A stretch of DNA of 64,000 bases from Clostridia bacterium (GTDB lineage Bacteria > Bacillota > Clostridia > Christensenellales > CAG-138): assembly GCA_030526425.1 (NCBI GenBank), contig JAUNCT010000002.1, forward strand, positions 1 to 64,000, in the 5' to 3' direction. This document shows, piece by piece, positions 12,330 to 23,888 of this stretch; positions within the stretch are counted from its first letter, which is position 1; every line of letters starts with the position of its first letter. The notes under the pieces are model-generated. The model searched no databases. It saw nothing but the letters and a program-made list of their open reading frames with translations, and had not been told where the DNA came from. The position numbers and the translations under genes are program-made.

Positions 12330-13142
12330 ATGAAATTCAGCGTTTGCGCCGTCGACCGGGACCTTCCGGTCGACCGCCCGTTCCCGCTCCGCGCGCCGAC
12401 CTACGCCGAGTGCGCGCGCATCGCCCGTGAGATCGGCTTCGACGGCATCGAGCTGCAGGTGCAGGATCCTTCCCTGTACGACGGCAAGCTCCTCAAGCGC
12501 CAGCTCGACGATCAGGGCATCGCCTGCTCCGCCGTCACGACGGGTCTCGCCTACGTGTACGAGGGGCTGAACATGGCCGACCCCGACCCCGCCATCCGCA
12601 AAAAGACGGTGGAGCGTCTGCACCGCCAGCTCGACCTCGCCAAGGAACTCGACTCCGCCATCCTCGTCGGCTTCATCCGCGGGCGTCAGGGCGACCGTTC
12701 CGCCATCGAGTTCGAGAAGTGCCTCAGCGAGAGCGTCCGCGCGGTGCTCGACTACGCCGAGGAGCTCAACACCCCCTTCATCATGGAACAGGTGAACCAC
12801 CACGACGGCGACATCTACTGCAACACCGAGCGCACGATGCAGTTCCTCGAAAGCTTCCACTCCGACCTGCTGCAGTACAACGGCGACACCTACCACATGT
12901 GGATCGACGACACGACCATCACCGAAGCGATCGAACGCAGCCTCGGAAAGCTCGTGCTGTTCCACGTTTCGGATGTCGGACGCAACCTGCCCGACGACAA
13001 GCACTTCGACTTTTACGAAGCCGCCGCCGCGCTGAAGAAGTTCGGCTACAACGGCTGGACGAGCATCGAGTGCAAGCCCCTGCCCGACAGCTACACCTGC
13101 TGCAAGCAGGGTCTCGCATACCTCAAGCGCGTGTTCGGCTGA
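12330..13142 (+). CDS. Sugar phosphate isomerase/epimerase (xylose-isomerase-like TIM barrel)
   Basis: AP-endonuclease-2/xylose-isomerase-like TIM-barrel signature (FDGIEL...HVSD...E). 270 aa. Confidence 0.8.
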   Translation: MKFSVCAVDRDLPVDRPFPLRAPTYAECARIAREIGFDGIELQVQDPSLYDGKLLKRQLDDQGIACSAVTTGLAYVYEGLNMADPDPAIRKKTVERLHRQLDLAKELDSAILVGFIRGRQGDRSAIEFEKCLSESVRAVLDYAEELNTPFIMEQVNHHDGDIYCNTERTMQFLESFHSDLLQYNGDTYHMWIDDTTITEAIERSLGKLVLFHVSDVGRNLPDDKHFDFYEAAAALKKFGYNGWTSIECKPLPDSYTCCKQGLAYLKRVFG

Positions 13143-13222
13143 CACCGCGTTCTGCCGCAGGCGTCCCCTCCGGGATGCCCGCGGCTTTTTGTTTACGGCG
13201 CACCGGGCGTATGATATGATGG

Positions 13223-13540
13223 ATGCAAACCACGAGAGGAGACGGGACCGTGTACGGATTGAAAGACCGCTTGGTCGGCGAACTCACGGCGCTCGCCGCA
13301 TACCACGACCTGGACAGGCTGATCCTCTTCGGCTCCCGCGCGCGGGGCGATCACCGCGAGCGCAGCGACATCGACCTTGCCGTTCTCGGCGGCGACACCG
13401 CACGCTTCGCCTTGGATGCCGATGAAGAGACCTCGACCCTGTTGCGGTTCGACATCGTGGACCTCGGCGGTGCCGTTCAGCCCGAGCTGCTCGAAAGCAT
13501 CCGCCGCGACGGAAAGGTATTGTATGCAAAAGTTCGATAA
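13223..13540 (+). CDS. Minimal nucleotidyltransferase (MNT) antitoxin-type protein
   Basis: GS-x10-DxD motif (GSRARGDHRERSDIDLAV). An alternative GTG start at 13250 has a better-spaced GGAGA RBS. Overlaps the downstream HEPN gene by 17 nt. Confidence 0.8.
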   Translation: MQTTRGDGTVYGLKDRLVGELTALAAYHDLDRLILFGSRARGDHRERSDIDLAVLGGDTARFALDADEETSTLLRFDIVDLGGAVQPELLESIRRDGKVLYAKVR

Positions 13541-13916
13541 CTTCTGCCGGGCGTTGGAAAACCTCGGCGAGATCGGGCGCTATTCCGCCCCTTACGGCAC
13601 CGTGGAGCTGACCGGGATGGTCGCCCTGTTCGAAATCTGCTTCGAGCAAGCGTGGAAGGCGATGAAGGAAGCCCTCGAGCTTTCCGGCTTTTCCGAAGGG
13701 AAGACCGGCTCGCCGAAGCTCATTCTCAAAACCGCTTACGCCGCCGGAATGATCGGCAACGAAGACCTGTGGCTTTCCGCCCTCGAGGCGCGCAACAGCG
13801 CCGCGCACGCCTACAACGCCGCCGTTGCCGAAGACATCGTGCAAAAAACCAAGGCGGAATTTCTCCCCATGTTCCGCGCGCTGAAAGAGGAGATCGCCCG
13901 CAATTGGGCGGTTTGA
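13524..13916 (+). CDS. HEPN-domain nucleotidyltransferase-substrate-binding protein (HI0074-like toxin-type)
   Basis: RNxxxH HEPN motif (ARNSAAHAYN). 130 aa. Forms an overlapping pair with the MNT gene. Confidence 0.8.
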   Translation: MQKFDNFCRALENLGEIGRYSAPYGTVELTGMVALFEICFEQAWKAMKEALELSGFSEGKTGSPKLILKTAYAAGMIGNEDLWLSALEARNSAAHAYNAAVAEDIVQKTKAEFLPMFRALKEEIARNWAV

Positions 13917-13930
13917 CCGCATACCGACGC

Positions 13931-13958
13931 AGAGCCCCTTTGCGGGGGCTCTTTTTTC
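13931..13958 (+). terminator. Rho-independent terminator after the MNT/HEPN pair
   Basis: agagcccc / ggggctct stem followed by a T6 run. Confidence 0.75.
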
Positions 13959-14155
13959 GTTTGCAACCGGGCGCTTGATTTTTTGAAAGCGAATCTTTGA
14001 AAACCCATTGACAAACCGCGGGAAAGCGATAAACTTTTACTTGTACAAAAAAATATTTTTCTTTTCTGCAAATCTTTTCGTTATTTCACCGAACGTCTCA
14101 GTATCTCAAAAGTCCACAACGTATCCAGTCAATTCATTCAAAGGAGACAACCGAC

Positions 14156-15532
14156 ATGACCGAGAAACAAGAGAATACCTGTTGCGTGGAAAACATTTAC
14201 AAGCTGAACGGCAAAGTACCGATCGGCAAGGCGATCCCCTTCGGTTTGCAGCACGTGCTGGCGATGTTCGTTTCGAACGTCACCCCCGTCATGATCATCG
14301 CAGGGCTCGCGCAGTACAACGGCGTTGCGTTCTCGGGCGTCGACACCGCGCTGCTCGTGCAGGCGGCAATGCTCGTTGCCGGTCTCGGCACGCTCATCCA
14401 GCTGTTCCCCGTGTGGCGCATCGGCGCGAAGCTGCCGGTCGTCATGGGTCTTTCCTTCACCTTCCTCGCGGCGATGATCAACCTCGCCGTGCAAGATTAC
14501 GGATTGATGATCGGCGCCGTCATCGTCGGCGGCTGCATCGAAGGTCTGCTCGGTCTCACCGCCAAATACTGGCGGCGCTTCATCACCCCGGTCGTCTCGG
14601 CGTGCGTCGTCACGGCGATCGGCTTCAGCCTCCTTTCCGTGGGCATCACCTCCTACGGCGGCGGCGACGCGTCGGCAGCGGATTTCGGTTCCTGGCAGAA
14701 CCTCACCGTCGCAACGATCACCCTGCTTTCCTGCCTCATCTTCAATAACCGCGTCAAGGGCTTCTGGCGGCAGCTGTACGTGCTGTTCGGTCTCGGCGTG
14801 GGCTACCTCGTCGCTGTGATCTTCACCGTGACGAACCTCGCCCCCGGCATGGTCAACTTCGCGCAGATGAAATCCACCGTCGCGGAACTCGGCTTCATCG
14901 CCCTGCCCCGCATCTTCCACTTCACGCCCAAGTTCGAAATCGGCGCGATCATCTCCGTCACGCTGGTGTTCCTCGTTTCCGCTGCGGAAACCATCGGCGA
15001 CACCACGGCGGTCTGCACCGGCGGTCTCGGCCGCGACATCACCGAAAAGGAAGTCTCCGGCTCCCTCGCCTGCGACGGTTTCATGAGCGCCGTGAGCGGC
15101 GGCGTGTTCGGTTGCCCGCCGATCACCAGCTTCTCCCAGAACGTCGGTCTCGTGGCGATGACCAAGGTCGTCAACCGTTACACCATCATGTTCGGCGCGC
15201 TGACCCTCGTGCTCGCGGGTCTCTTCCCGCCGATCGGCGCGTTCTTCTCCACCCTGCCCGCCTGCGTGCTCGGCGGCTGCACGGTCATGATGTTCGGTAC
15301 GATCATCATCTCCGGCGTCAACATGCTTTCCTCCTGCGGTATGGATGAGCGCAACACCATCATCGCCGCAACGAGCTTCTGCGTCGGCATCGGCGTCACG
15401 ACCAACCCCACGATCTTCCAGCACATGCCGAAGATCGTCGGCGATATCTTCGCCGGCAACTCCGTCGCGGGCGTGTTCGTGGTCGCGATGATCATGTCGC
15501 TGCTGCTCAAGAAGAAGCCCGAAGCGAAGTAA
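14156..15532 (+). CDS. Nucleobase:cation symporter-2 (NCS2) family permease (uracil/xanthine-type)
   Basis: 458 aa with about 12-14 TM segments. The N-terminal GLQHVLAMFVSNVTPVMIIAG is characteristic of the xanthine/uracil permease family. Confidence 0.85.
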   Translation: MTEKQENTCCVENIYKLNGKVPIGKAIPFGLQHVLAMFVSNVTPVMIIAGLAQYNGVAFSGVDTALLVQAAMLVAGLGTLIQLFPVWRIGAKLPVVMGLSFTFLAAMINLAVQDYGLMIGAVIVGGCIEGLLGLTAKYWRRFITPVVSACVVTAIGFSLLSVGITSYGGGDASAADFGSWQNLTVATITLLSCLIFNNRVKGFWRQLYVLFGLGVGYLVAVIFTVTNLAPGMVNFAQMKSTVAELGFIALPRIFHFTPKFEIGAIISVTLVFLVSAAETIGDTTAVCTGGLGRDITEKEVSGSLACDGFMSAVSGGVFGCPPITSFSQNVGLVAMTKVVNRYTIMFGALTLVLAGLFPPIGAFFSTLPACVLGGCTVMMFGTIIISGVNMLSSCGMDERNTIIAATSFCVGIGVTTNPTIFQHMPKIVGDIFAGNSVAGVFVVAMIMSLLLKKKPEAK

Positions 15533-15675
15533 CCCCCGTTCCCACCCGCCGGAAACCTGTCCTCCTATTCAAAACGATTCTTTCCTTGGATTTTCCACTC
15601 GTTCCCGGCGGTTCCCCCGCAGCGCCCTTTTTGATTGGTGAAGGCACGCTGCGGGGGCTTTTTGTTTGCGATGTA

Positions 15676-15710
15676 CAAAAAACGGAGCCCCCGAAAGGGC
15701 TCCGTTTCGT
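15676..15710 (+). terminator. Terminator after the permease; a second, weaker hairpin lies at about 15618-15670
   Basis: aacggagccc / gggctccgtt stem with a T-rich tail. Confidence 0.7.
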
Positions 15711-16156
15711 TGTGGTACTGATATTCGGAAAAGCATCGGCCCTCCGCAGGAGGCTCCACTTGGGAATGTGCTGCAAAACGCTCACCGTTCTCAAGCGCCT
15801 TTGGCGCTTGGCTCCACTTGAGGAAGCAAGGGGATGCCCGAGCGTGCCGAAGGCGTGCGGGGCGCGACAGCTGTTGCCGAAGGCAATAGCGAAAGCGTGG
15901 CGAGCGCAAGCGAGACTGAGGGGTTTCGATGCAAGTAGGGTTCCTTTGGATTTCAACCCGCAAGCATTTCCGATAGTGGCAAGCGTTGACCTCGCACAGA
16001 ACCGATAGCCGCTCCCAACGCGATATGCCTCCCTCTGGAGGGAGGCCGAGTGTTGCGAAGCAATACGGGGCGCGGCAGTGGTGCTTGCACCACGAGAGCG
16101 GGGCACGCCGTGCAGTAGGCGCATCGGGACGGAAGGAGTTCTCTCCCACGCGACAC

Positions 16157-16192
16157 ACAAAAACGGAGCCCTTTTACGGGGCTCCGTTTTGT
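16157..16192 (-). terminator. Terminator of the TIR operon (also usable on the plus strand)
   Basis: aaacggagccc / gggctccgttt stem, nearly identical to the hairpin at 15681-15706, with T-runs on both sides. Confidence 0.7.
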
Positions 16193-16300
16193 GCCTTTCC
16201 GCCCGCCTGCGGCGGGAAGGGCGCCTGCGGCGCAGCGGCATAATAACCGCCACACCGCACCGTCATTTTCGTTTCCCGTTACCTTCGGATTGATTTCAGA

Positions 16301-19141
16301 TCAGAAGATATCGGATTCAAGATTCATCCAAAAAGCGGGGCGAACACAGCCACCGTCGTCGTTGACATAGTTGAGGAGGGAGCCGTAGGGGTACACGCGA
16401 GCGGCACAGTCCTGATTGAGGCCGGGGGAGCGCAGCCACCAACACCCGGCGGCAGCCCCTTCCGCGGTCTTATAGTCCTCGTTCGTCCAAGCACCTTGCT
16501 CTTTTGCGTACGCCGTCGGCTGCACGCGGGATTTCGTGTTCTTATCCGCGCCACTCTTCTGCCAATACTCGACGCCGAAATACTTGTTCGCCTCGGCGTA
16601 GCTCAAAAGGAACACCTTGTCCTTCGTGTCGTTGCCGCCGTTGGTGCTCCACTTGCTGTACCCCTGACTCTTGCCGTTGTCCACTTCCGTCGTCAGGATA
16701 GCCTTCTGTTCTTCCGCCGTGAACGCCTTGTTCAAAAACTCGCCGTTCAGCCAGGTGCGCAGCGTGCACTTTTCCCACGTGACGCTCGTGTCTTTCGTGT
16801 TGTATGGTTTTGCATCCAAACCGTATTTTGCTATCAGCAGCGACTTGTCGCCTTTTACATCCAGCACGATCCATTCGATCGGTTCCGCGCCGTTCGATGT
16901 GTTGTTGTCCTGCTCGTAGCTGCCGAAGGTCACGACGCTGCCCACCGTGCGGTAAAGCTTGCGCTTCGCTTCGCGCGCCGCCGCCGCCGCCGCCAGATTG
17001 TCGTCCGTTTTCAGCAGCGTGTCAACATCCTTGTAACCTTTCAGCGGCAAAAACACATCATACGCTTTATCATAATTCTTTGCCGCAAGCAGTGCCTTGC
17101 CCTGTTGGTACTTCGTTTCGGAAACCTGCGTCGCGGCGTCCTTGTAGCCGCCGAGCTCTTCGAACGCCAGCACGGCGCCCGCGTAATTTCCCGCTTCCCG
17201 CAGGGCGACCGCCTTGTTGTAGTTGCCGCTCGGGATGATGACCTTCGTCACCACGAGAAACACGGCAACGCACAGCGCCGCCGCGGCGGTGGCGATGGTG
17301 ATGAGCCGCCTGCGCTTTGCGGCGGCTTCCTCCGCGGCGATCCTTTCGCGTTCCTCCGCTTGTCTCCGGCGCTCTTCCTCTTGGCGGCGGCGTTCCTCTT
17401 CGGCGCGCCGTTCTTCCGTCTCGATGCGCCCGATCTCCGCGGCGCACCGGCGCGCAAGTTCCGCACTGTCCTTGTAACCGTGCATGGCTTCGAGCGCGGT
17501 CTTCGCGTTTGCAAAGCCCTGCTTGTCGCGCGCGGCGTTCATGGTGCCGGCAGCCTTCTCGTAATCGGCTTCGCGCTTCTTCACGGCACCATCATGCAGC
17601 TTGGCGACCTTGGCGTCCGCCGCCGCAAGGTGCGCCTTGTAAGCGTTGCACACCCTTTCGGTGCTCGCTTTGTCCTGCGCTTCGGCTTGGGCAACGCGCG
17701 CATCCAACGCGGCGTTGATTTCCGCTACCGCGGCTTCGGTCTGCTGCTTGGTTTCGCCCTTGGCGTACTGCCGCGCGCGGTTCAGCAGGCGGTCGTTCGC
17801 AAGCGCCCTTTTCTGCTGTTCCCGCTGGCTGCGCCTGCCCGCAAGCACGCTGTCATAGCCCCGGTCGAACGCGTACGGTAACCGGATCTCCTTTTCCGCA
17901 AGGTAGTGCGCAACGGTGTTTTCCTTCACCGCCCGTGCGATGTGCATCGTATCCTCGGGGCACGCGGTCAGCCGCTCCGCCGGAGGTTGCTTTTCGTTGC
18001 GCCCGCATTCCGCCTTCACCCACGAAGCGAGAGAGGGCTTCTTTTCCCGCGCGAGCAGCTTGCCGATGAACGCCTCCGCGCACTCGGGCTCGAGGTTCAG
18101 CGCCTCCTCGAAAAAGCCGTCCGCCTTTTCCCACTCGTGGTCTTCGAGCGCCATGTTGCCGCGCTTCACCTGTGCGGCGGTGGTCGTTCCGCCCACGGTC
18201 GCTTGCGTTACGACGGTCTGCACCTTGGGCGCTTCCGGCTTCTTGCCGGCATCCAGCACCTTTTTCACGCCGCGCAGCAGGTCCTGCATGAAGCCGATCT
18301 TGCCCATATCCTGGCTTTGCAGGTTGCTCAGCTCCTCCGGCAGGTCGTAGGGGTCCATCCCCCGGTAGCAGGGGATGAGCAGGCGCTTTCGGTCGTTCGC
18401 CATCAGGGCGAGGTAGCGGCTCCACTCGTTTTTGACCCACACGGCGTTGAAGTATTCGGGCTTGCTGCCGACCGCCACCATGACCTTGGCGGAATTCAGC
18501 GCCGCGAAGATATACGGTTCGTACTGCTGCCCCAGCTTGTCTTCGAGCGTGATGCGGCTGAAGAACACCTTGTAGCCCTGTTCGGCAAGCCCGTAATAGA
18601 TCTCCTGCGCCCACTGCGAGTCGCGCGTGCGCTGCCCGTTCTCATCCGTTTCCTTGTAGCAGATGAACACATCGTAGGGCTTTTCGTTCGCCGAAATCGC
18701 GAGGATGCCCTTTTGGATCTCGGCGATGCGCTGCGCCTCCGCCTTGTAGATGTTCGCGCTCTCCGCATCCGGCGCATGTTCAACGGCGGCAAGGTAATCC
18801 GCATCCGCGAGGATGCTCGCCACCTGCACGCGGTGGCAGGTCGGGATGCGCTGCTTGGTTTTCGGGTCTTCGACGTATTCGATGCCGTAACGGCTCAGCA
18901 CAGCGCCCCAATGCGCCTCGGCGTCCGTGTCGTCCTGCTCGAGCAGCTTTTCATACGCCGCGACCGCCTTGTCGAATTCGCACTGCCGGCGGAAGTGGTT
19001 CGCCCGGTTGTAGCGGTTGAGCTGCTGCTCGTCTTCCGCCTTCGGGATGGTCGAAACGCTCCCGCAGTATTCGCACGTGCCGTAGGTATCCCCCGGCGTG
19101 AACGCGATGTCCCCACCGCACATTTTGCATTTGATGATCAT
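16301..19141 (-). CDS. Zinc-ribbon / TIR-domain / single-pass TM / extracellular TPR-like plus DUF6273-like domain protein
   Basis: N-terminal CxxC...CxxC ribbon. TIR core KPYDVFICYKETDENG...KVFF with candidate catalytic Glu in AVWVKNEWSRYL. Glu/Arg-rich coiled coil, then TM helix LITIATAAAALCVAVFLVVTKVII. C-terminal domain has a CWWLRSPG...VRPAFWMNL motif. 946 aa. ATG lies 3 nt after the upstream gene's stop. Confidence 0.85.
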   Translation of the reverse strand: MIIKCKMCGGDIAFTPGDTYGTCEYCGSVSTIPKAEDEQQLNRYNRANHFRRQCEFDKAVAAYEKLLEQDDTDAEAHWGAVLSRYGIEYVEDPKTKQRIPTCHRVQVASILADADYLAAVEHAPDAESANIYKAEAQRIAEIQKGILAISANEKPYDVFICYKETDENGQRTRDSQWAQEIYYGLAEQGYKVFFSRITLEDKLGQQYEPYIFAALNSAKVMVAVGSKPEYFNAVWVKNEWSRYLALMANDRKRLLIPCYRGMDPYDLPEELSNLQSQDMGKIGFMQDLLRGVKKVLDAGKKPEAPKVQTVVTQATVGGTTTAAQVKRGNMALEDHEWEKADGFFEEALNLEPECAEAFIGKLLAREKKPSLASWVKAECGRNEKQPPAERLTACPEDTMHIARAVKENTVAHYLAEKEIRLPYAFDRGYDSVLAGRRSQREQQKRALANDRLLNRARQYAKGETKQQTEAAVAEINAALDARVAQAEAQDKASTERVCNAYKAHLAAADAKVAKLHDGAVKKREADYEKAAGTMNAARDKQGFANAKTALEAMHGYKDSAELARRCAAEIGRIETEERRAEEERRRQEEERRRQAEERERIAAEEAAAKRRRLITIATAAAALCVAVFLVVTKVIIPSGNYNKAVALREAGNYAGAVLAFEELGGYKDAATQVSETKYQQGKALLAAKNYDKAYDVFLPLKGYKDVDTLLKTDDNLAAAAAAREAKRKLYRTVGSVVTFGSYEQDNNTSNGAEPIEWIVLDVKGDKSLLIAKYGLDAKPYNTKDTSVTWEKCTLRTWLNGEFLNKAFTAEEQKAILTTEVDNGKSQGYSKWSTNGGNDTKDKVFLLSYAEANKYFGVEYWQKSGADKNTKSRVQPTAYAKEQGAWTNEDYKTAEGAAAGCWWLRSPGLNQDCAARVYPYGSLLNYVNDDGGCVRPAFWMNLESDIF

Positions 19142-19144
19142 GAT

Positions 19145-19768
19145 TTATTTCTCCGCTGTTTCAAATCTCTTAAATCTGTTTTCGACTATTTCTTCAATGT
19201 TTTTTACGAGCAGTTCGATTTTCTTTATGTTTTCCGCGTCCTTTACGCTTATTGACTTTATCTCGTTCTTTTTATAATCCCCTTTATGCACTATCGCATT
19301 TCTTCTATCCACGAGTTTCTCAACATCTTTAAGCAATGCTTCGTCTTGTGACTTTCCCTGTGCATTTTCGGTTATCTTCGGCAAACCGTACAACGCAAAC
19401 AGTTCATCAATTACTTTCATCCTTTGTGTCGTATAGTGTTCATAGTACTGATAAACCTTATCTTGGATGCCGGAAAGAGATTGATTATCCCGATACATCT
19501 CGATTACCGTACCTATTGTCACACCATAATCCAACAGGCGTTTCTCGATATTCTCGTTGATTTCCTCATTATTGATAAAGGTATAGAAATGTTCAGCAAA
19601 ACAGTTCGTCATATATGCATCCATCGCCGCAACACTCAAAACGACAGCCGCACGTAACAAATCACAATTACCTTTGGGGTCTGTACCTGCTTTCTGATTG
19701 TTGTACAAAGCTACCAATTTGTTGCAACGATCTATCGTCTTCCGAAAAATCGTATATGCATTAGACAT
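19145..19768 (-). CDS. HEPN-motif protein (RNxxxH), probable Abi-type RNase; strongly AT-rich gene
   Basis: 207-aa ORF at roughly 38% GC inside a genome of about 63% GC. Canonical HEPN motif DRRNAIVHKG near the C-terminus. Confidence 0.6.
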   Translation of the reverse strand: MSNAYTIFRKTIDRCNKLVALYNNQKAGTDPKGNCDLLRAAVVLSVAAMDAYMTNCFAEHFYTFINNEEINENIEKRLLDYGVTIGTVIEMYRDNQSLSGIQDKVYQYYEHYTTQRMKVIDELFALYGLPKITENAQGKSQDEALLKDVEKLVDRRNAIVHKGDYKKNEIKSISVKDAENIKKIELLVKNIEEIVENRFKRFETAEK

Positions 19769-19777
19769 ACTACCCGC

Positions 19778-20410
19778 TTACTTCTTCTCCGCCTTCGCGA
19801 CCGTCTTCCGCTCTTCCACCATCCGCAGCGCTTCGGCGACATCGCCCTTTTCCACCGCTTCGGCGATCCTTCCGTCCATGCTCGTCGGGGTCGGGTCGGC
19901 ACAGCGCACGGCTTCCGCCAGCCGCTTCGCCGCGGGGTCTTTCGTTTTCGCCGCAAGGGCGTTGACCGCGGTGCGGATGGCTTTCCATCCGGCGGTCGTG
20001 TCCTTCACGCGTTGTTCGCTCTTTTCCACCGCTTCGCGCACGGCTTGCTTTACGCTCAGCGCCATCAGCGTGCCGAGCACCAAAGCGATCTCGATAATGA
20101 GCGCGAGCCACAGCGGGCACAGCTTCGAAAACGCCATCAGCAGCAGACCGGCGACGAGCTGCGCCGCCAGCGCCGCACAGCCCACCCGGTACAGGGGCCA
20201 GCCGATCAGCTTGCTCTGCAAGCCTTGCGCCTTGCCGAACGCCAAATAAAACGCAACAGCGCACAGGGCGAACATCACCGCATCCGCGCCGAGCGCGACA
20301 TAAAACACCGCCGTCCGCGCGAAGGGGAACAGCAGCGCCACCGCCGCAACGAGCAGCAGCGCCAACAGCCAAACCTTGATTGCCTGCTTCGATTCTTTCA
20401 TCGTTTCCAC
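19778..20410 (-). CDS. Small membrane protein (4 predicted TM helices plus a helical cytoplasmic tail)
   Basis: 210 aa. Hydrophobic segments across aa 10-120. Stop and start are tightly spaced with the flanking genes. Confidence 0.6.
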   Translation of the reverse strand: METMKESKQAIKVWLLALLLVAAVALLFPFARTAVFYVALGADAVMFALCAVAFYLAFGKAQGLQSKLIGWPLYRVGCAALAAQLVAGLLLMAFSKLCPLWLALIIEIALVLGTLMALSVKQAVREAVEKSEQRVKDTTAGWKAIRTAVNALAAKTKDPAAKRLAEAVRCADPTPTSMDGRIAEAVEKGDVAEALRMVEERKTVAKAEKK

Positions 20411-20411
20411 C

Positions 20412-22265
20412 TCACTCGGGTCGTTTGCCGCCGCACTCGGGGCAGAACTTCGCCGTTACGCCCTTGTTGCCGCAGGCGCAATCCCACACGGCGGGGGCTT
20501 CGGGCTTTTTCGCCCCGCACTCGGGGCAAAACTTGCTTGTGATGCCCGTTGCGCCGCACGCGCAGCTCCACGCCGCCGGGGCTTCGGGCTTTTTCGCCCC
20601 GCACTCGGGGCAGAACCTGCTGGTAATGCCCTTGGCACCGCAGGCGCAGTCCCAAGCATCCGCCGCAGCGGGCGCGGGCTTCTTCGCGCCGCATTCGGGG
20701 CAGAAGTTCGAGGTGATGTTCTTTGCGCCGCACGCGCAGGTCCATCCGCCCATGCCGGCCGCCTGCCCGAGCACGCCGCCCGCCTGTTGGGTCAGGGGCG
20801 AAACGGCTTCCTTCGTCATGCCGATCACGCCGCCCATCACGCCGAGCCCGATGCCCAGCTGCATCGCATCCCCGGCGATGGTGCCGAGTCCGCCCGCGCC
20901 GCCGTTCCGCACGGCTTCCGTGCCCACCTGCCGCGCGGTCTCCTGCTGGTAGGTGTAGCCCTTCATCTTCATTTCCATGGCTTCCGCCTCCGCCTGCATG
21001 CGGTAAGCGTCCGCCTCTGCCTGCGCTTGGATGCGCAGCGCGTCCGCATCGCCCTGCGCGCCGATGACCTTCATGCGCGCGGCGGTCTGCGCCTCCACGG
21101 CCTTGCGTTCGAACGCCGCCTCCGCCTCCGCTTTTTTGATCGCCTCTTCCTTCGTTTTCAGGTACAGGTCGGCGTGCTGCTGCTTCATGCGGCGGAAGTT
21201 CGGGTCGTCGTCGGGCGTGACGATGTTCGCCACGTAGAACTCCGGCATTTCGAGACCGTATTCCGAAAGCTCGGGGTCGATCGCCGCCTTCATCGCCGCG
21301 GCGATGGCGTCGAGATGCATATCGAGCTCGAGCACGCTGATGCTGTTTTGCTTGATGACCCGCGCGAGGTTCGCCTTGACCTTGGCGGCGATCATCGTGC
21401 GGAAATATCCGCCGATGGCGCGCGCGCCGATCGCCCCGCCTTCGCCGAACAGGTCGCCCTGCGTCAGCCCGCCCGCGGTGCCCACCAGCTTGATGAGCAG
21501 CTTCCGCGCATCCGTCACGCGCATGTTGAACGCACCCGATGCGCCGAGCTCCACGTGCATGCCCGTCGCGGGGTCGAACAAACCGACCTTACTCGGCGTG
21601 CCCCACTTGATGCCCGCCTGCGTGGTGAGGTTCACGAAGTAGACCTCCGCATGGAAGGGCTGCCCGTCGACGGGCAGGCGGTACAGGGCTTCCGTCTTCG
21701 GCATCACGCCGGTTTCGAGCGTGTAGCCGCCCGGTCCGAAGGAGTCGAGCGCCTCGCCGTTGCGGAAGAACACCGCCTCCTGACTTTCGTGCACGATGAG
21801 GCGGCTGCCCGTCGTAAAGTCGGTGAGCGGGTGCTTCCACACGAAGGTGTCGTTCGCCCCTTCGTAGCGGATCACCGCGGGCACGCCCTTGTCGCGCACC
21901 TCCGCGCGTTTGATCTCCTTTTGCACATCCGCCACGGTGTCGCACACGGGGCAGGTGATGTGCGCCGCGCCCTTCGAAGCCTGCAGCTCGCAGCCGCAGG
22001 TCTCACAGCGGAAGTGCACGAGGTTGCCGTAATCGGCTTCCGTCACGAGCTGCTGCCTGCACACGGGGCACTTCGCATCCGTGCCCTCCGCCTGGTCGTA
22101 AACGACGTTGTTCCCGCAGGAGGGGCAGGTCTTCGTGGTCATGCGGTCCGTCTTCACGTGGATGACGTTGCCGCAGCTGCATTGGATGTGCTTGGATGCG
22201 AAAAAGCCCGTGCTTGCCTGCACATAGCTGTGGCAAACCGGGCATGCGATGATGAATTTTCCCAT
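20412..22265 (-). CDS. SPFH/band-7 (COG4260-type) protein with N-terminal and C-terminal zinc-ribbon arrays
   Basis: N-terminal run of CxxC motifs, then an SPFH-like core (VIRYEGANDTFVWKHPL...), a coiled coil, and four C-terminal W-C-x-C-G...F-C-P-E-C-G-x-K-(K/R)-P-E repeats. 617 aa. Confidence 0.8.
   Translation of the reverse strand: MGKFIIACPVCHSYVQASTGFFASKHIQCSCGNVIHVKTDRMTTKTCPSCGNNVVYDQAEGTDAKCPVCRQQLVTEADYGNLVHFRCETCGCELQASKGAAHITCPVCDTVADVQKEIKRAEVRDKGVPAVIRYEGANDTFVWKHPLTDFTTGSRLIVHESQEAVFFRNGEALDSFGPGGYTLETGVMPKTEALYRLPVDGQPFHAEVYFVNLTTQAGIKWGTPSKVGLFDPATGMHVELGASGAFNMRVTDARKLLIKLVGTAGGLTQGDLFGEGGAIGARAIGGYFRTMIAAKVKANLARVIKQNSISVLELDMHLDAIAAAMKAAIDPELSEYGLEMPEFYVANIVTPDDDPNFRRMKQQHADLYLKTKEEAIKKAEAEAAFERKAVEAQTAARMKVIGAQGDADALRIQAQAEADAYRMQAEAEAMEMKMKGYTYQQETARQVGTEAVRNGGAGGLGTIAGDAMQLGIGLGVMGGVIGMTKEAVSPLTQQAGGVLGQAAGMGGWTCACGAKNITSNFCPECGAKKPAPAAADAWDCACGAKGITSRFCPECGAKKPEAPAAWSCACGATGITSKFCPECGAKKPEAPAVWDCACGNKGVTAKFCPECGGKRPE
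20415..20744 (-). repeat. Four tandem DNA repeats of about 84 bp, each encoding one C-terminal zinc-ribbon module of the SPFH protein
   Basis: Near-identical nucleotide units and peptide repeats WxCACG..(I/V)T(S/A)xFCPECGxK(K/R)PE x4. Confidence 0.8.
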
Positions 22266-22330
22266 GTGTGTGCTCTCCCGTGTCGTTGTTTTATCGGTAA
22301 ACCTGTGGTGTGAACTGCATTTTCGGTACC

Positions 22331-22362
22331 ATTATACACCCCCCCCCGATTTTGCTTTTCAA
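22331..22362 (-). promoter_or_regulatory. Sigma-70-like promoter TTGAAA-N20-TATAAT with a G9 homopolymer (plus-strand C9 at 22339-22347) inside the spacer
   Basis: Read on the minus strand: TTGAAAagcaaaatcGGGGGGGGGtgTATAAT. It lies about 70 bp upstream of the ATG at 22265 and is oriented toward the operon. Confidence 0.55.
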
Positions 22363-22431
22363 CCGTTGTTTCACAATATAAGAAACGGATGTAAACGGAG
22401 TTTTGAAAGCCGCGCATGCTTCGGGGCACAG

Positions 22432-22460
22432 AAAAAAGCACCGCCGGAGCGGTGCTTTCG
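22432..22460 (-). terminator. Terminator of pyk
   Basis: agcaccgc / gcggtgct stem with a T-run on the minus strand. Confidence 0.75.
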
Positions 22461-22475
22461 TTGCTTGGTATGCGC

Positions 22476-23888
22476 TTATCTTGCGGTCTCGACCTTGATG
22501 ATGTTGGTGTTGCCGCTGCTGCCCGTGGTGCCGCCGGTGATGACGACGTTCTCGCCGGGCTTCAGGTCCATGATGCGCTTGGCCTCCTTCATGCCCTGAT
22601 AGAACATGACGTCGATGGAGGTGTAGTGCTCGCTCATCACGGGGATGACGCCCCAGCTCAGGTTCAGCTGGCGCCACGCCTTGGGCGTGGTCGTCACGCC
22701 GATGATATCCACCGGGCTGCGGAAGCGGCTGACCATGCGCGCGGTCTTTCCCGTGATGGAGTTGACCACGATGCAGCGCGCGTCCACGTCGATGGCCATC
22801 GCGCAGGTCGCGTGGGAAATGGCGTCGATGGTGTTTCCGATGGGGAACTCGGTCTTCAGGAAACGGCGCTTGTAGTTGATGCTCTTTTCGGTGAACAGGG
22901 CGATCTCCGCCATGTTGCGCACGGCTTCGGCGGGGTATTTGCCCGCGGCGGTCTCGCCGGAAAGCATGATCGCCGAGCTGCCGTCGTACACGGCGTTCGC
23001 CACGTCCGAGATCTCCGCACGGGTCGGGCGCGGGTTCGTGACCATGGATTCGAGCATCTCCGTCGCGGTGATGACGCGCTTGCCGAGCATGCGGCACTTT
23101 TCGATGAGCTTCTTTTGGATGACGGGCACCTCCACGAAGGGGATCTCCACGCCGAGGTCGCCGCGCGCAACCATGATGCCGTCGGCGATCTCGCAGATCT
23201 CTTCGATGTTGTCGACGCCGGCGCGGTTCTCGATCTTCGCGATGATGCTGATGTCCTCACCGCCGTTCTCCACGAGGAAGTCGCGCAGGACCTTCATGTC
23301 GCTCTTGTTCGAAACGAACGAAGCCGCGACGAAGTCCACATCGTTTTCGATGCCGAACAGCAGGTCGGCCTTGTCCTGCTCGCTGAGGTAATCCTGCTTG
23401 AGCACCTTGTTCGGGAAGGACATGCTCTTGCGGTCGGAAAGAACGCCGCCGTTGACGACGCGGCAGTTCACATCGTTGCCCTCGACGCTTTCGACGGTCA
23501 GCTTCACCATGCCGTTGTTGATCGTCACGGTGTCGCCCGCCTTCAGCTCCTCGTGCAGGTGCTTGTAGCTCACGGAAACGCGCTGCTCGTTGCCCGCGAC
23601 ATCCGCGGTCGTCAGGGTGAACAGGTCGCCGTCGTTCAGAACGATCTTCTTGTTTTCGAAGGTGCCGATGCGGTATTCCGGTCCCTTCGTGTCGAGCATG
23701 ATGGCGATGGGCTTGCCCAGCTCCTCGCGGATCTTCTTGATGCGGTCGATGCGCGCCTGATGCTCGGAGTGATCCCCGTGGGAGAAGTTGAGGCGCGCCA
23801 CGTTCATGCCTTCCTGCATGAGGTTGCGCAGCATCTCCTCGCTTTCGCACGCGGGGCCGATGGTGCAGATGATCTTCGTTTTTCTCAT
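22476..23888 (-). CDS. pyk: Pyruvate kinase
   Basis: MRKTKIICTIGPA start with an AGGAGG RBS. ...MVARGDLGVEIP active-site region. 470 aa. Confidence 0.95.
   Translation of the reverse strand: MRKTKIICTIGPACESEEMLRNLMQEGMNVARLNFSHGDHSEHQARIDRIKKIREELGKPIAIMLDTKGPEYRIGTFENKKIVLNDGDLFTLTTADVAGNEQRVSVSYKHLHEELKAGDTVTINNGMVKLTVESVEGNDVNCRVVNGGVLSDRKSMSFPNKVLKQDYLSEQDKADLLFGIENDVDFVAASFVSNKSDMKVLRDFLVENGGEDISIIAKIENRAGVDNIEEICEIADGIMVARGDLGVEIPFVEVPVIQKKLIEKCRMLGKRVITATEMLESMVTNPRPTRAEISDVANAVYDGSSAIMLSGETAAGKYPAEAVRNMAEIALFTEKSINYKRRFLKTEFPIGNTIDAISHATCAMAIDVDARCIVVNSITGKTARMVSRFRSPVDIIGVTTTPKAWRQLNLSWGVIPVMSEHYTSIDVMFYQGMKEAKRIMDLKPGENVVITGGTTGSSGNTNIIKVETAR

Follow-up and report, generated by a model that had tools for sequence, protein, structure and literature searches.

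The bacterial TIR immunity known so far senses infection from inside the cell. Thoeris ThsB, TIR-STING, the SPARTA TIR-APAZ protein and BtpA/TcpB are soluble proteins that respond to cytoplasmic cues, and in animals the Toll-like and interleukin-1 receptors (TLR/IL-1R) join a binding ectodomain through one transmembrane (TM) helix to a cytoplasmic TIR domain. A further group, the “antigen sensors” of Thiohalocapsa and cyanobacteria, consists of proteins with a lectin fold that is diversified by diversity-generating retroelements (DGRs) and with effector domains that include TIR (Dore et al. PNAS 2024, PMC10907252; Kaur/Aravind eLife 2020, PMC7159879; Vallota-Eastman 2020, PMC7517822). Here we describe a gene from a Clostridia bacterium of the Christensenellales (assembly GCA_030526425.1, contig JAUNCT010000002.1, positions 1 to 64,000; this whole stretch of 64,000 nucleotides is referred to as the window). 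Its product is predicted to carry a zinc ribbon, a TPR unit and a TIR domain inside the cell, a single TM helix, and outside the cell a DUF6273 domain whose tip is a DGR-type variable region (VR). The antigen sensors are the closest known concept to this TIR-TM-DUF6273 family.

Antigen sensors and TIR-TM-DUF6273 proteins both have a C-terminal lectin-fold VR written by adenine mutagenesis, with the effector (TIR included) at the N-terminus, and both are proposed as sensors of conflict systems. However, the antigen sensors are centred on STAND or MoxR-vWA NTPases, are mostly cytoplasmic, use an FGE-sulfatase-type domain and come from cyanobacteria and proteobacteria, whereas the present family has a single TM helix with the VR outside, DUF6273, a zinc ribbon-TPR-TIR (ZnR-TPR-TIR) module and an operon with SPFH and four-TM proteins, and belongs to gut Clostridia. 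Pfam found no STAND, MoxR NTPase or vWA domain in the protein or its operon, and most family members, the window gene included, differ from the antigen sensors in having no adjacent DGR. DUF6273 itself is a C-type-lectin-like scaffold targeted by DGRs, with the VR at its C-terminal end, in Faecalibacterium prophages (PMC11792537) and in the tentaclins (PMC10743442). The window protein shares this scaffold and the position of the VR, but the phage targets are receptor-binding proteins of the virion, whereas this one is chromosomal, membrane-anchored and equipped with a cytoplasmic TIR domain. With Thoeris ThsB, TIR-STING, SPARTA and BtpA/TcpB it has in common a TIR_2-type domain and the Glu of the WxxxE motif, with a weak sequence match to BtpA/TcpB and fold matches to TIR-STING and SPARTA; it differs from them in its membrane anchor, and no ThsA (SIR2/Macro), STING, Argonaute or SAVED partner is present at the window locus, where no PADLOC system model matched. 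A literature search, which left supplementary tables aside, found no paper describing the TIR-TM-DUF6273 family or its SPFH operon. The main text of Roux et al. 2021 (PMC8144416) notes membrane-anchored cellular DGR targets in general terms and contains neither “TIR” nor “Toll”.

The gene begins with ATG and is read on the minus strand, as seen from the ORF (open reading frame) list and the translation, in a window of about 62% G+C; a plus-strand translation of 16301-19141 gave a spurious reading throughout and was rejected. NCBI holds an identical protein under the title [quoted passage not shown]; looking up contigs by the exact protein gave no match. The coordinates of its parts and of its neighbours are collected in Table 1. 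We regard the statements on the architecture of the protein and on its family as close to certain.

Table 1. Features of the receptor gene and its operon in the window (aa, amino acid residues of the 946-residue protein; nt, nucleotides).
Feature	Position	Strand	Basis
SPFH/Band_7_1 protein, 617 aa, first operon gene	20412..22265	-	Band_7_1, E 4e-36
Membrane protein of ~210 aa, operon partner	19778..20410	-	TM blocks, synteny
HEPN_RiboL-PSP gene, 207 aa, RNAIVH motif	19145..19768	-	Pfam, E 6e-14
Whole gene, 946 aa, ZnR-TPR-TIR-coiled coil-TM-TPR-like stalk-DUF6273	16301..19141	-	ORF list, translation, Pfam
Cys4 zinc ribbon, aa 4-30	19052..19132	-	CxxC...CxxC spacing, weak Pfam match
TPR unit, aa 44-80, within conserved N-module aa 1-365	18902..19012	-	TPR_2
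TIR domain, aa 156-297; Glu239 at nt 18425-18427	18251..18676	-	TIR_2, AlphaFold2, Foldseek
Helical/TPR-like middle with Glu/Arg-rich long helices, aa 326-612	17306..18166	-	AlphaFold2, conservation
Single TM helix, aa 613-636, predicted N-in/C-out	17234..17305	-	Hydropathy, positive-inside rule
TPR-like helical-hairpin stalk, aa 637-731, repeated motif G-x-Y-x-x-A-x-x-x-F-x-x-L-G-x-Y-K-D	16949..17233	-	
DUF6273 (C-type-lectin-like) predicted ligand-binding domain, aa 765-940	16322..16849	-	
DGR-type VR; hypervariable core aa 908-932 (nt 16346-16420) between WWLRSPG and VRPAFW	16334..16447	-	Template repeat matches, codon pattern
GC-rich hairpin, ~110 nt past the stop codon	16154..16193	.	Inverted repeats

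The TIR domain is recognised by Pfam (TIR_2, aa 158-280, E 8e-14, 52.6 bits against a cut-off of 28), and the AlphaFold2 model has the alternating beta/alpha pattern of a flavodoxin-like fold over aa 158-297. Foldseek matches this region at probability 1.00 to flax L6, MAL and oyster TIR-STING and also recovers the SPARTA TIR domain; by sequence, the nearest solved TIR domains are flax L6/L7 and BtpA/TcpB. Glu239, in the context W235-V-K-N-E239, aligns with the Glu of “SKWCLMEL” in L6 and of “WPARE” in BtpA/TcpB, the WxxxE motif. It shows no substitution in any of three alignments, with 45, 100 and 50 relatives, and the surrounding WVKNEW is likewise unchanged in 100 or more diverse members. 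TIR NADases use the WxxxE Glu as their catalytic residue. From this we infer a TIR domain of the enzyme type with an intact catalytic-type Glu, for which cleavage of NAD+ or cyclase activity is predicted. N-terminal to it, the four cysteines of the zinc ribbon are C5, C8, C23 and C26, of which the last three are invariant and C5 nearly so among 100 diverse relatives aligned, with a weak match to Zn_Ribbon_TF, and the TPR_2 match (aa 44-72) has an E value of 2e-10. C-terminal to it, AlphaFold2 places long helices at aa 465-536 and 559-610, the second being rich in Glu and Arg and continuing into the TM helix. The full-length model is weaker (pLDDT 66), with the beta/alpha alternation of the TIR domain and the long helices entering the TM helix both visible.

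Only one segment of the protein is strongly hydrophobic: the helix at aa 613-636, with a Kyte-Doolittle peak of 2.73, is the sole segment above 1.6. It is preceded by KRRR, and among 37 distinct homologue flanks the N-terminal side is always the richer in Lys and Arg (37 of 37, mean 6.6 against 2.4 on the C-terminal side). Since these flanks follow the positive-inside rule and the N-terminus has nothing resembling a signal peptide, the N-terminal 612 residues should be cytoplasmic and the C-terminal 310 should lie outside. The protein is therefore a predicted single-pass, receptor-like membrane protein of type II (N-in/C-out). The outer part is modelled confidently by AlphaFold (pLDDT 85, pTM 0.81) as five to six helical hairpins over aa 637-731 followed by an alpha/beta domain. 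In structure searches with this ectodomain the hairpins align with TPR proteins, and Foldseek matches it to phage DUF6273 and tail-fibre proteins; the Pfam match to DUF6273 spans aa 765-940 (E 1.3e-30).

The original prediction, which had been made from the letters of the sequence, gave the ORF without its strand, and each structural element that it named is borne out by the results above: the N-terminal Cys4 zinc ribbon (conserved in relatives, with a weak Pfam match), the TIR domain with its intact catalytic Glu region, the Glu/Arg-rich coiled coil before the membrane (the long helix at about aa 559-610), a single TM helix with TIR inside and DUF6273 outside (hydropathy and the 37 flanks put its two ends on opposite sides), the TPR-like repeats outside the membrane, and DUF6273, then suggested and now found by profile. 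Its architecture thus held in every part, and its interpretation is supported in part, the coupling of an outside signal to a cytoplasmic NADase being a hypothesis. Its premise that bacterial TIR proteins are nearly always soluble was wrong for gut Clostridia, where the TM-anchored family alone makes up at least 4,108 clusters at 50% identity. The likeness that it drew to TLR/IL-1R in inverted order stands for the layout of TIR, one TM helix and ectodomain in type II orientation and fails for homology, which is limited to the TIR domain; the TIR domains of Toll-like receptors are of the scaffold type, without the enzyme-type Glu. Some family members do carry leucine-rich repeat (LRR) ectodomains, and these versions of ZnR-TPR-TIR proteins mimic Toll-like receptors more closely still. 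With its type II orientation and DUF6273 ectodomain, the window protein is an analogue of TLR/IL-1R and not a member.

A word-indexed homologue search returned at least 8,000 matches, and the architecture was checked on the 120 homologues listed. Among these, TIR_2 and DUF6273 are present in all 120, as is a single TM helix between them. The N-module (aa 1-365) is 73-80% identical in 119 homologues, the stalk about 54% and DUF6273 about 64%, and the middle region is essentially unconserved, giving a BLAST match in 1 of 119. Searching with the N-module (E ≤ 1e-30) reached the clusters counted above, and in the best 150 of the 4,108 cluster representatives the module is always N-terminal and 54-79% identical, with one TM helix in 97 of the 150. 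What follows the module differs. A Pfam scan of 50 representatives found TIR_2 in all 50, RCC1_2 in 14, DUF6273 in 12, and LRR_5 and LRR_8 in two each; other C-terminal parts are WG repeats and RHS repeats, and some of the LRRs are of the BspA type. Members come from Clostridia of human and animal gut and rumen samples. As read from sequence, a constant, putatively cytoplasmic ZnR-TPR-TIR module joined to interchangeable, putatively extracellular binding domains is the logic of a receptor family.

DGR cassettes were found in relatives by scanning for the Asn-codon-rich pattern of a template repeat (TR), which is present at 24 loci in metagenome contigs and gave no match in the viral contigs scanned. 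Many of the 24 are complete cassettes with a target VR, Avd, TR and reverse transcriptase (RT), and in five (L046, L049, L051, L054 and L058) the target has the architecture of the window protein. Locus L054, for example, reads four-TM protein, DUF2971 protein, an 871-aa ZnR-TPR-TIR-coiled coil-TM-stalk-DUF6273 target, Avd, TR and RT. The RT matches RVT_1 (E 1.6e-20), and the ORF in the Avd position matches bAvd and 23S_rRNA_IVP, both below Pfam thresholds. Across 14 TR-VR pairs, 252 mismatches fall on TR adenines against 29 on G, C or T, and in some pairs every mismatch is at an adenine (22 of 22 in L054, 13 of 13 in L051, 18 of 18 in L045). Comparisons between independent assemblies isolate the VR further: L049 and L051 have no differences in the 700 nt upstream of the VR, the Avd region and the TR, and 17 in the VR, and L046 and L052 have three, two and none in the same three parts and 25 in the VR. 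As the flanks and the TR are identical or nearly so while the VRs differ, DGR hypermutation of TIR-bearing membrane receptors is active in nature.

Some particulars of these cassettes may be added. In the 700 nt that precede the VR, L046 and L052 are 99.6% identical. The target ORF has 820 aa and a TIR domain in L046, and 341 aa and no TIR domain in L052; truncation, a frameshift or a difference in assembly could be the cause. At locus L040 (120-1124) a DUF6273 VR is accompanied by an Avd-like ORF and by a TR-like copy, part of which departs from the VR at non-adenine bases; a LytTR/histidine-kinase pair follows in place of any RT, and this is apparently a decaying cassette. Directly after the RT, L054 (190-1251, stored strand -) and L051 encode an FRG-domain protein of about 350 aa, and in L054 the start of this gene overlaps the end of the RT gene.

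The window gene keeps the imprint of a DGR in its VR. In aligned homologues the sole hypervariable patch lies between the invariant WWLRSPG and VRPA(L/F)W, and 36 distinct VRs define 15 variable columns. Residues E, K, Q, M and W make up 16 of the 495 residues at variable columns across the family, against a background of 20% (p 6e-29), as would be expected if AAY codons were mutated at their adenines. The 14 variable codons of the window gene are without exception NNY, a class that accounts for 49% of codons in the rest of the gene (p 4e-5). Its VR is 76-78% identical to TRs of other genomes. Compared with the closest of these, TR_L057, it has 27 mismatches; 17 of them coincide with adenines of the TR, a base that accounts for 27% of TR_L057 (p 9e-5). 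One pair of homologues that is 96% identical over the 300 aa upstream of the VR differs at 14 of 28 VR positions.

The operon around the receptor is itself conserved. Its first gene encodes an SPFH protein with several zinc ribbons at the N-terminus and three zinc-ribbon repeats at the C-terminus; the last ~100 aa are three tandem units of W-x-C-A-C-G-x-x-G-I-T-x-x-F-C-P-E-C-G-A-K-K-P-E, and a zinc ribbon is common to the starts of this protein and the TIR receptor. SPFH homologues, 59-71% identical, precede the TIR genes in 26 of 41 TIR-containing loci, many of the remaining 15 being truncated contigs. The next gene encodes the ~210-aa protein with hydrophobic blocks at aa 7-62 and 73-124, which we read as about four putative TM helices, and a helical tail; it has no Pfam or PADLOC match. 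Homologues of this four-TM protein (24-46% identical) stand between the SPFH and TIR genes in 25 loci, so ordered that SPFH/zinc-ribbon and four-TM genes are followed by one to five tandem TIR receptors, and the window has the same order from 22265 to 16301. The loci with this order are labelled Lachnospiraceae, Oscillospiraceae, Ruminococcaceae, Christensenellales, Anaerovoracaceae, Blautia and Enterocloster. On this layout, the TIR gene would be co-transcribed with the SPFH/zinc-ribbon and four-TM genes. Tandem arrays of three to five ZnR-TPR-TIR paralogues occur in L008 (a Christensenellales metagenome-assembled genome), L030, L032, L020 and L007; in L007 the VRs of two adjacent paralogues are 90% identical in DNA, with differences mostly at codon positions 1 and 2. 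The first gene of the window operon resembles the band-7 and zinc-ribbon protein of the Bacillus subtilis pspA-ydj operon, also a Band_7_1 SPFH protein with C-terminal zinc ribbons, which is implicated in the assembly of sub-membrane complexes (PMC11237479). Unlike that operon, the window operon has no PspA or TPM partner and has the TIR receptor instead.

In the window a HEPN gene is inserted between the four-TM and TIR genes, with gaps of 9 nt and 3 nt, the 3 nt being on the side of the TIR gene, whose ribosome-binding site sits within the 3' end of the HEPN gene. Its G+C content is 38% against 62% for the genome. As none of 64 related loci has a homologue, it is not a core component of the operon, and it looks like recently acquired defence-type cargo. 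In other genomes different low-GC genes occupy this slot ahead of the first TIR gene, encoding DUF2971 proteins in L015 and L054, an AbiH-like protein in L028 (a weak match), a YaaC-like protein in L035 and a 121-aa protein with an RNAIAH motif in L009. Type I restriction-modification systems adjoin related loci, with a CAP12-PCTIR TIR gene or an AbiGi gene embedded between hsdR and hsdS (L002:92-793 and L005:1366-2193), and near such loci the stretch upstream of the receptor genes also contains a gene for an 878-aa HSP70/MreB-like protein and one with an MZB domain. Judged by context, the slot inserts and the restriction-modification neighbours behave as in a defence island. PADLOC found nothing relevant in the neighbouring genes, and the NCBIfam collection gave a weak partial match to a retron-TIR model.

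Beyond the stop codon, the hairpin listed in Table 1 is likely the terminator of the operon. It is near-identical to a second hairpin, at 15676-15714, and both are GC-rich (AAAACGGAGCCC...GGGCTCCGTTT). About 440 nt of unassigned sequence lie between the two, which may be terminators facing each other or may mark the ends of a small element in decay. No convincing ORF occurs in the 770-nt gap 3' of the gene in which they lie (15533-16300), and scanning 13000-23000 against Rfam gave no RNA family. Further away, 13377-13916 on the plus strand encodes a 179-aa protein that matches NTase_sub_bind (E 1e-23), a HEPN-like family that pairs with minimal nucleotidyltransferases; its partner could be encoded by a short ORF immediately before it (13189-13425 or 13223-13540).

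We suggest that the protein is an outside-in sensor coupling the binding of a ligand to TIR activation, with a role in immunity, a reading that we consider evenly poised between true and false. In this model an extracellular ligand, candidates being phage tails, phage receptor-binding proteins and other foreign surfaces, would bind the variable lectin tip and cluster receptors in membrane patches organised by the SPFH protein. The TIR domains brought together there would cleave NAD+ or produce a signal nucleotide, and this output may arrest growth or switch on effectors encoded nearby, the inserted HEPN RNase among them. The nature of the ligand, signalling across the membrane, TIR activity and the immune role are all parts that we infer, and the idea of a receptor is strengthened by the DGR-type VR tip, the swappable ectodomains and the Abi/HEPN-type genes of the slot. 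A broader version, in which gut Clostridia possess a surface-receptor immune system with a germline repertoire of TIR receptors, a tip reprogrammed by DGRs in some strains, detection of phage or foreign cells before DNA entry and TIR oligomerisation on an SPFH platform, is tentative, and we would not expect it to hold in full.

Several observations weigh against an immune sensor. The TIR part of the AlphaFold2 model is of moderate confidence (pLDDT ~60-73), and NADase activity is a prediction from the sequence. PADLOC assigned the TIR protein to no known defence system, matching it only weakly to PDC-S66 (E 8e-4). The cytoplasmic module is unusually conserved and the operon, which is chromosomal and syntenic, is flanked by housekeeping genes (pyruvate kinase, permease); a core role in the cell would account for this no less well than a typical patchy defence gene would. 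Cellular DGR targets, which are mostly membrane-anchored, have been read mainly as adhesion or binding proteins (Roux et al. 2021, PMC8144416). The location of the operon and this reading of DGR targets also favour a surface adhesin, whose lectin tip would bind mucus, glycans, particles or cells and whose ZnR-TPR-TIR part would only anchor or oligomerise it on the SPFH scaffold, as do the occurrence of DUF6273 on secreted and cell-wall proteins such as the T. ramosa IgA protease and the tandem paralogue arrays, which are typical of adhesin repertoires. However, a domain with a structural role only would hardly account for an invariant Glu239 and WVKNEW in at least 100 diverse members, about 610 cytoplasmic residues are excessive for an anchor, and the operon has taken up Abi/HEPN-type genes; we think this reading unlikely. 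A sensor of envelope stress, monitoring the wall or membrane of the cell itself together with YdjI-like SPFH/zinc-ribbon and four-TM proteins and triggering a TIR-dependent response, draws on the conserved operon partnership and on the parallel with the SPFH and C-terminal zinc ribbon layout of the pspA-ydj operon protein (PMC11237479). We consider it quite improbable, given that a DGR-rewritten tip and swappable ectodomains would be unexpected for recognition of one conserved self structure and that no PspA homologue was noted in the operon.

The remaining points against concern the VR of the window copy. Repeat searches, blastn at word size 7, tblastn with the RTs and Avds of related cassettes and RT motif regular expressions found no TR, Avd or RT within the 64 kb of the window, and a DGR acting on the gene in cis was therefore rejected. 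Among 35 genome loci found by protein similarity only one has a TR-like copy, and RT is absent there. Where homologues match exactly through the 300 aa that precede the VR, their VRs are identical or one residue apart, which indicates that most chromosomal copies are static and not being diversified now. Taken together, the empty window and the static VRs of close homologues make the window copy best described as an orphan or frozen VR, probably not undergoing diversification at present. A further reading is a decayed relic, a former DGR target that no longer senses anything and is kept only by linkage. For it one may cite the empty window, the 10 of 27 mismatches to the nearest available TR that lie at non-A bases and the loss of RT in L040, which demonstrates that cassettes decay. 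But the ORF of 946 codons is unbroken and retains every residue that is invariant in the family, the gene is tightly coupled within its operon, thousands of DGR-less homologues are kept with strong purifying selection in the N-module, and a DGR at another place in the genome may act on the window VR from a distance; of the readings considered here, a relic appears to us the least probable.

Compared with known systems, what is new is the combination of a hypermutable or swappable binding domain, predicted to be outside the cell, with an enzyme-type TIR domain inside, in a very large family. If the coupling between them is true, the family would provide a testable model for outside-in immune signalling in bacteria, would show how cells rather than phages use DGRs, and would be a second, independent origin of the receptor logic that links a binding ectodomain through a TM helix to TIR. 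It would also assign a role to DUF6273 and to the uncharacterised SPFH/zinc-ribbon operon. Were the reading as a surface-receptor immune system also true, gut Clostridia would possess a prokaryotic counterpart of Toll-like receptors combined with somatically diversified receptors. As it stands, the family has the likeness of a surface receptor of bacteria whose specificity can be programmed.

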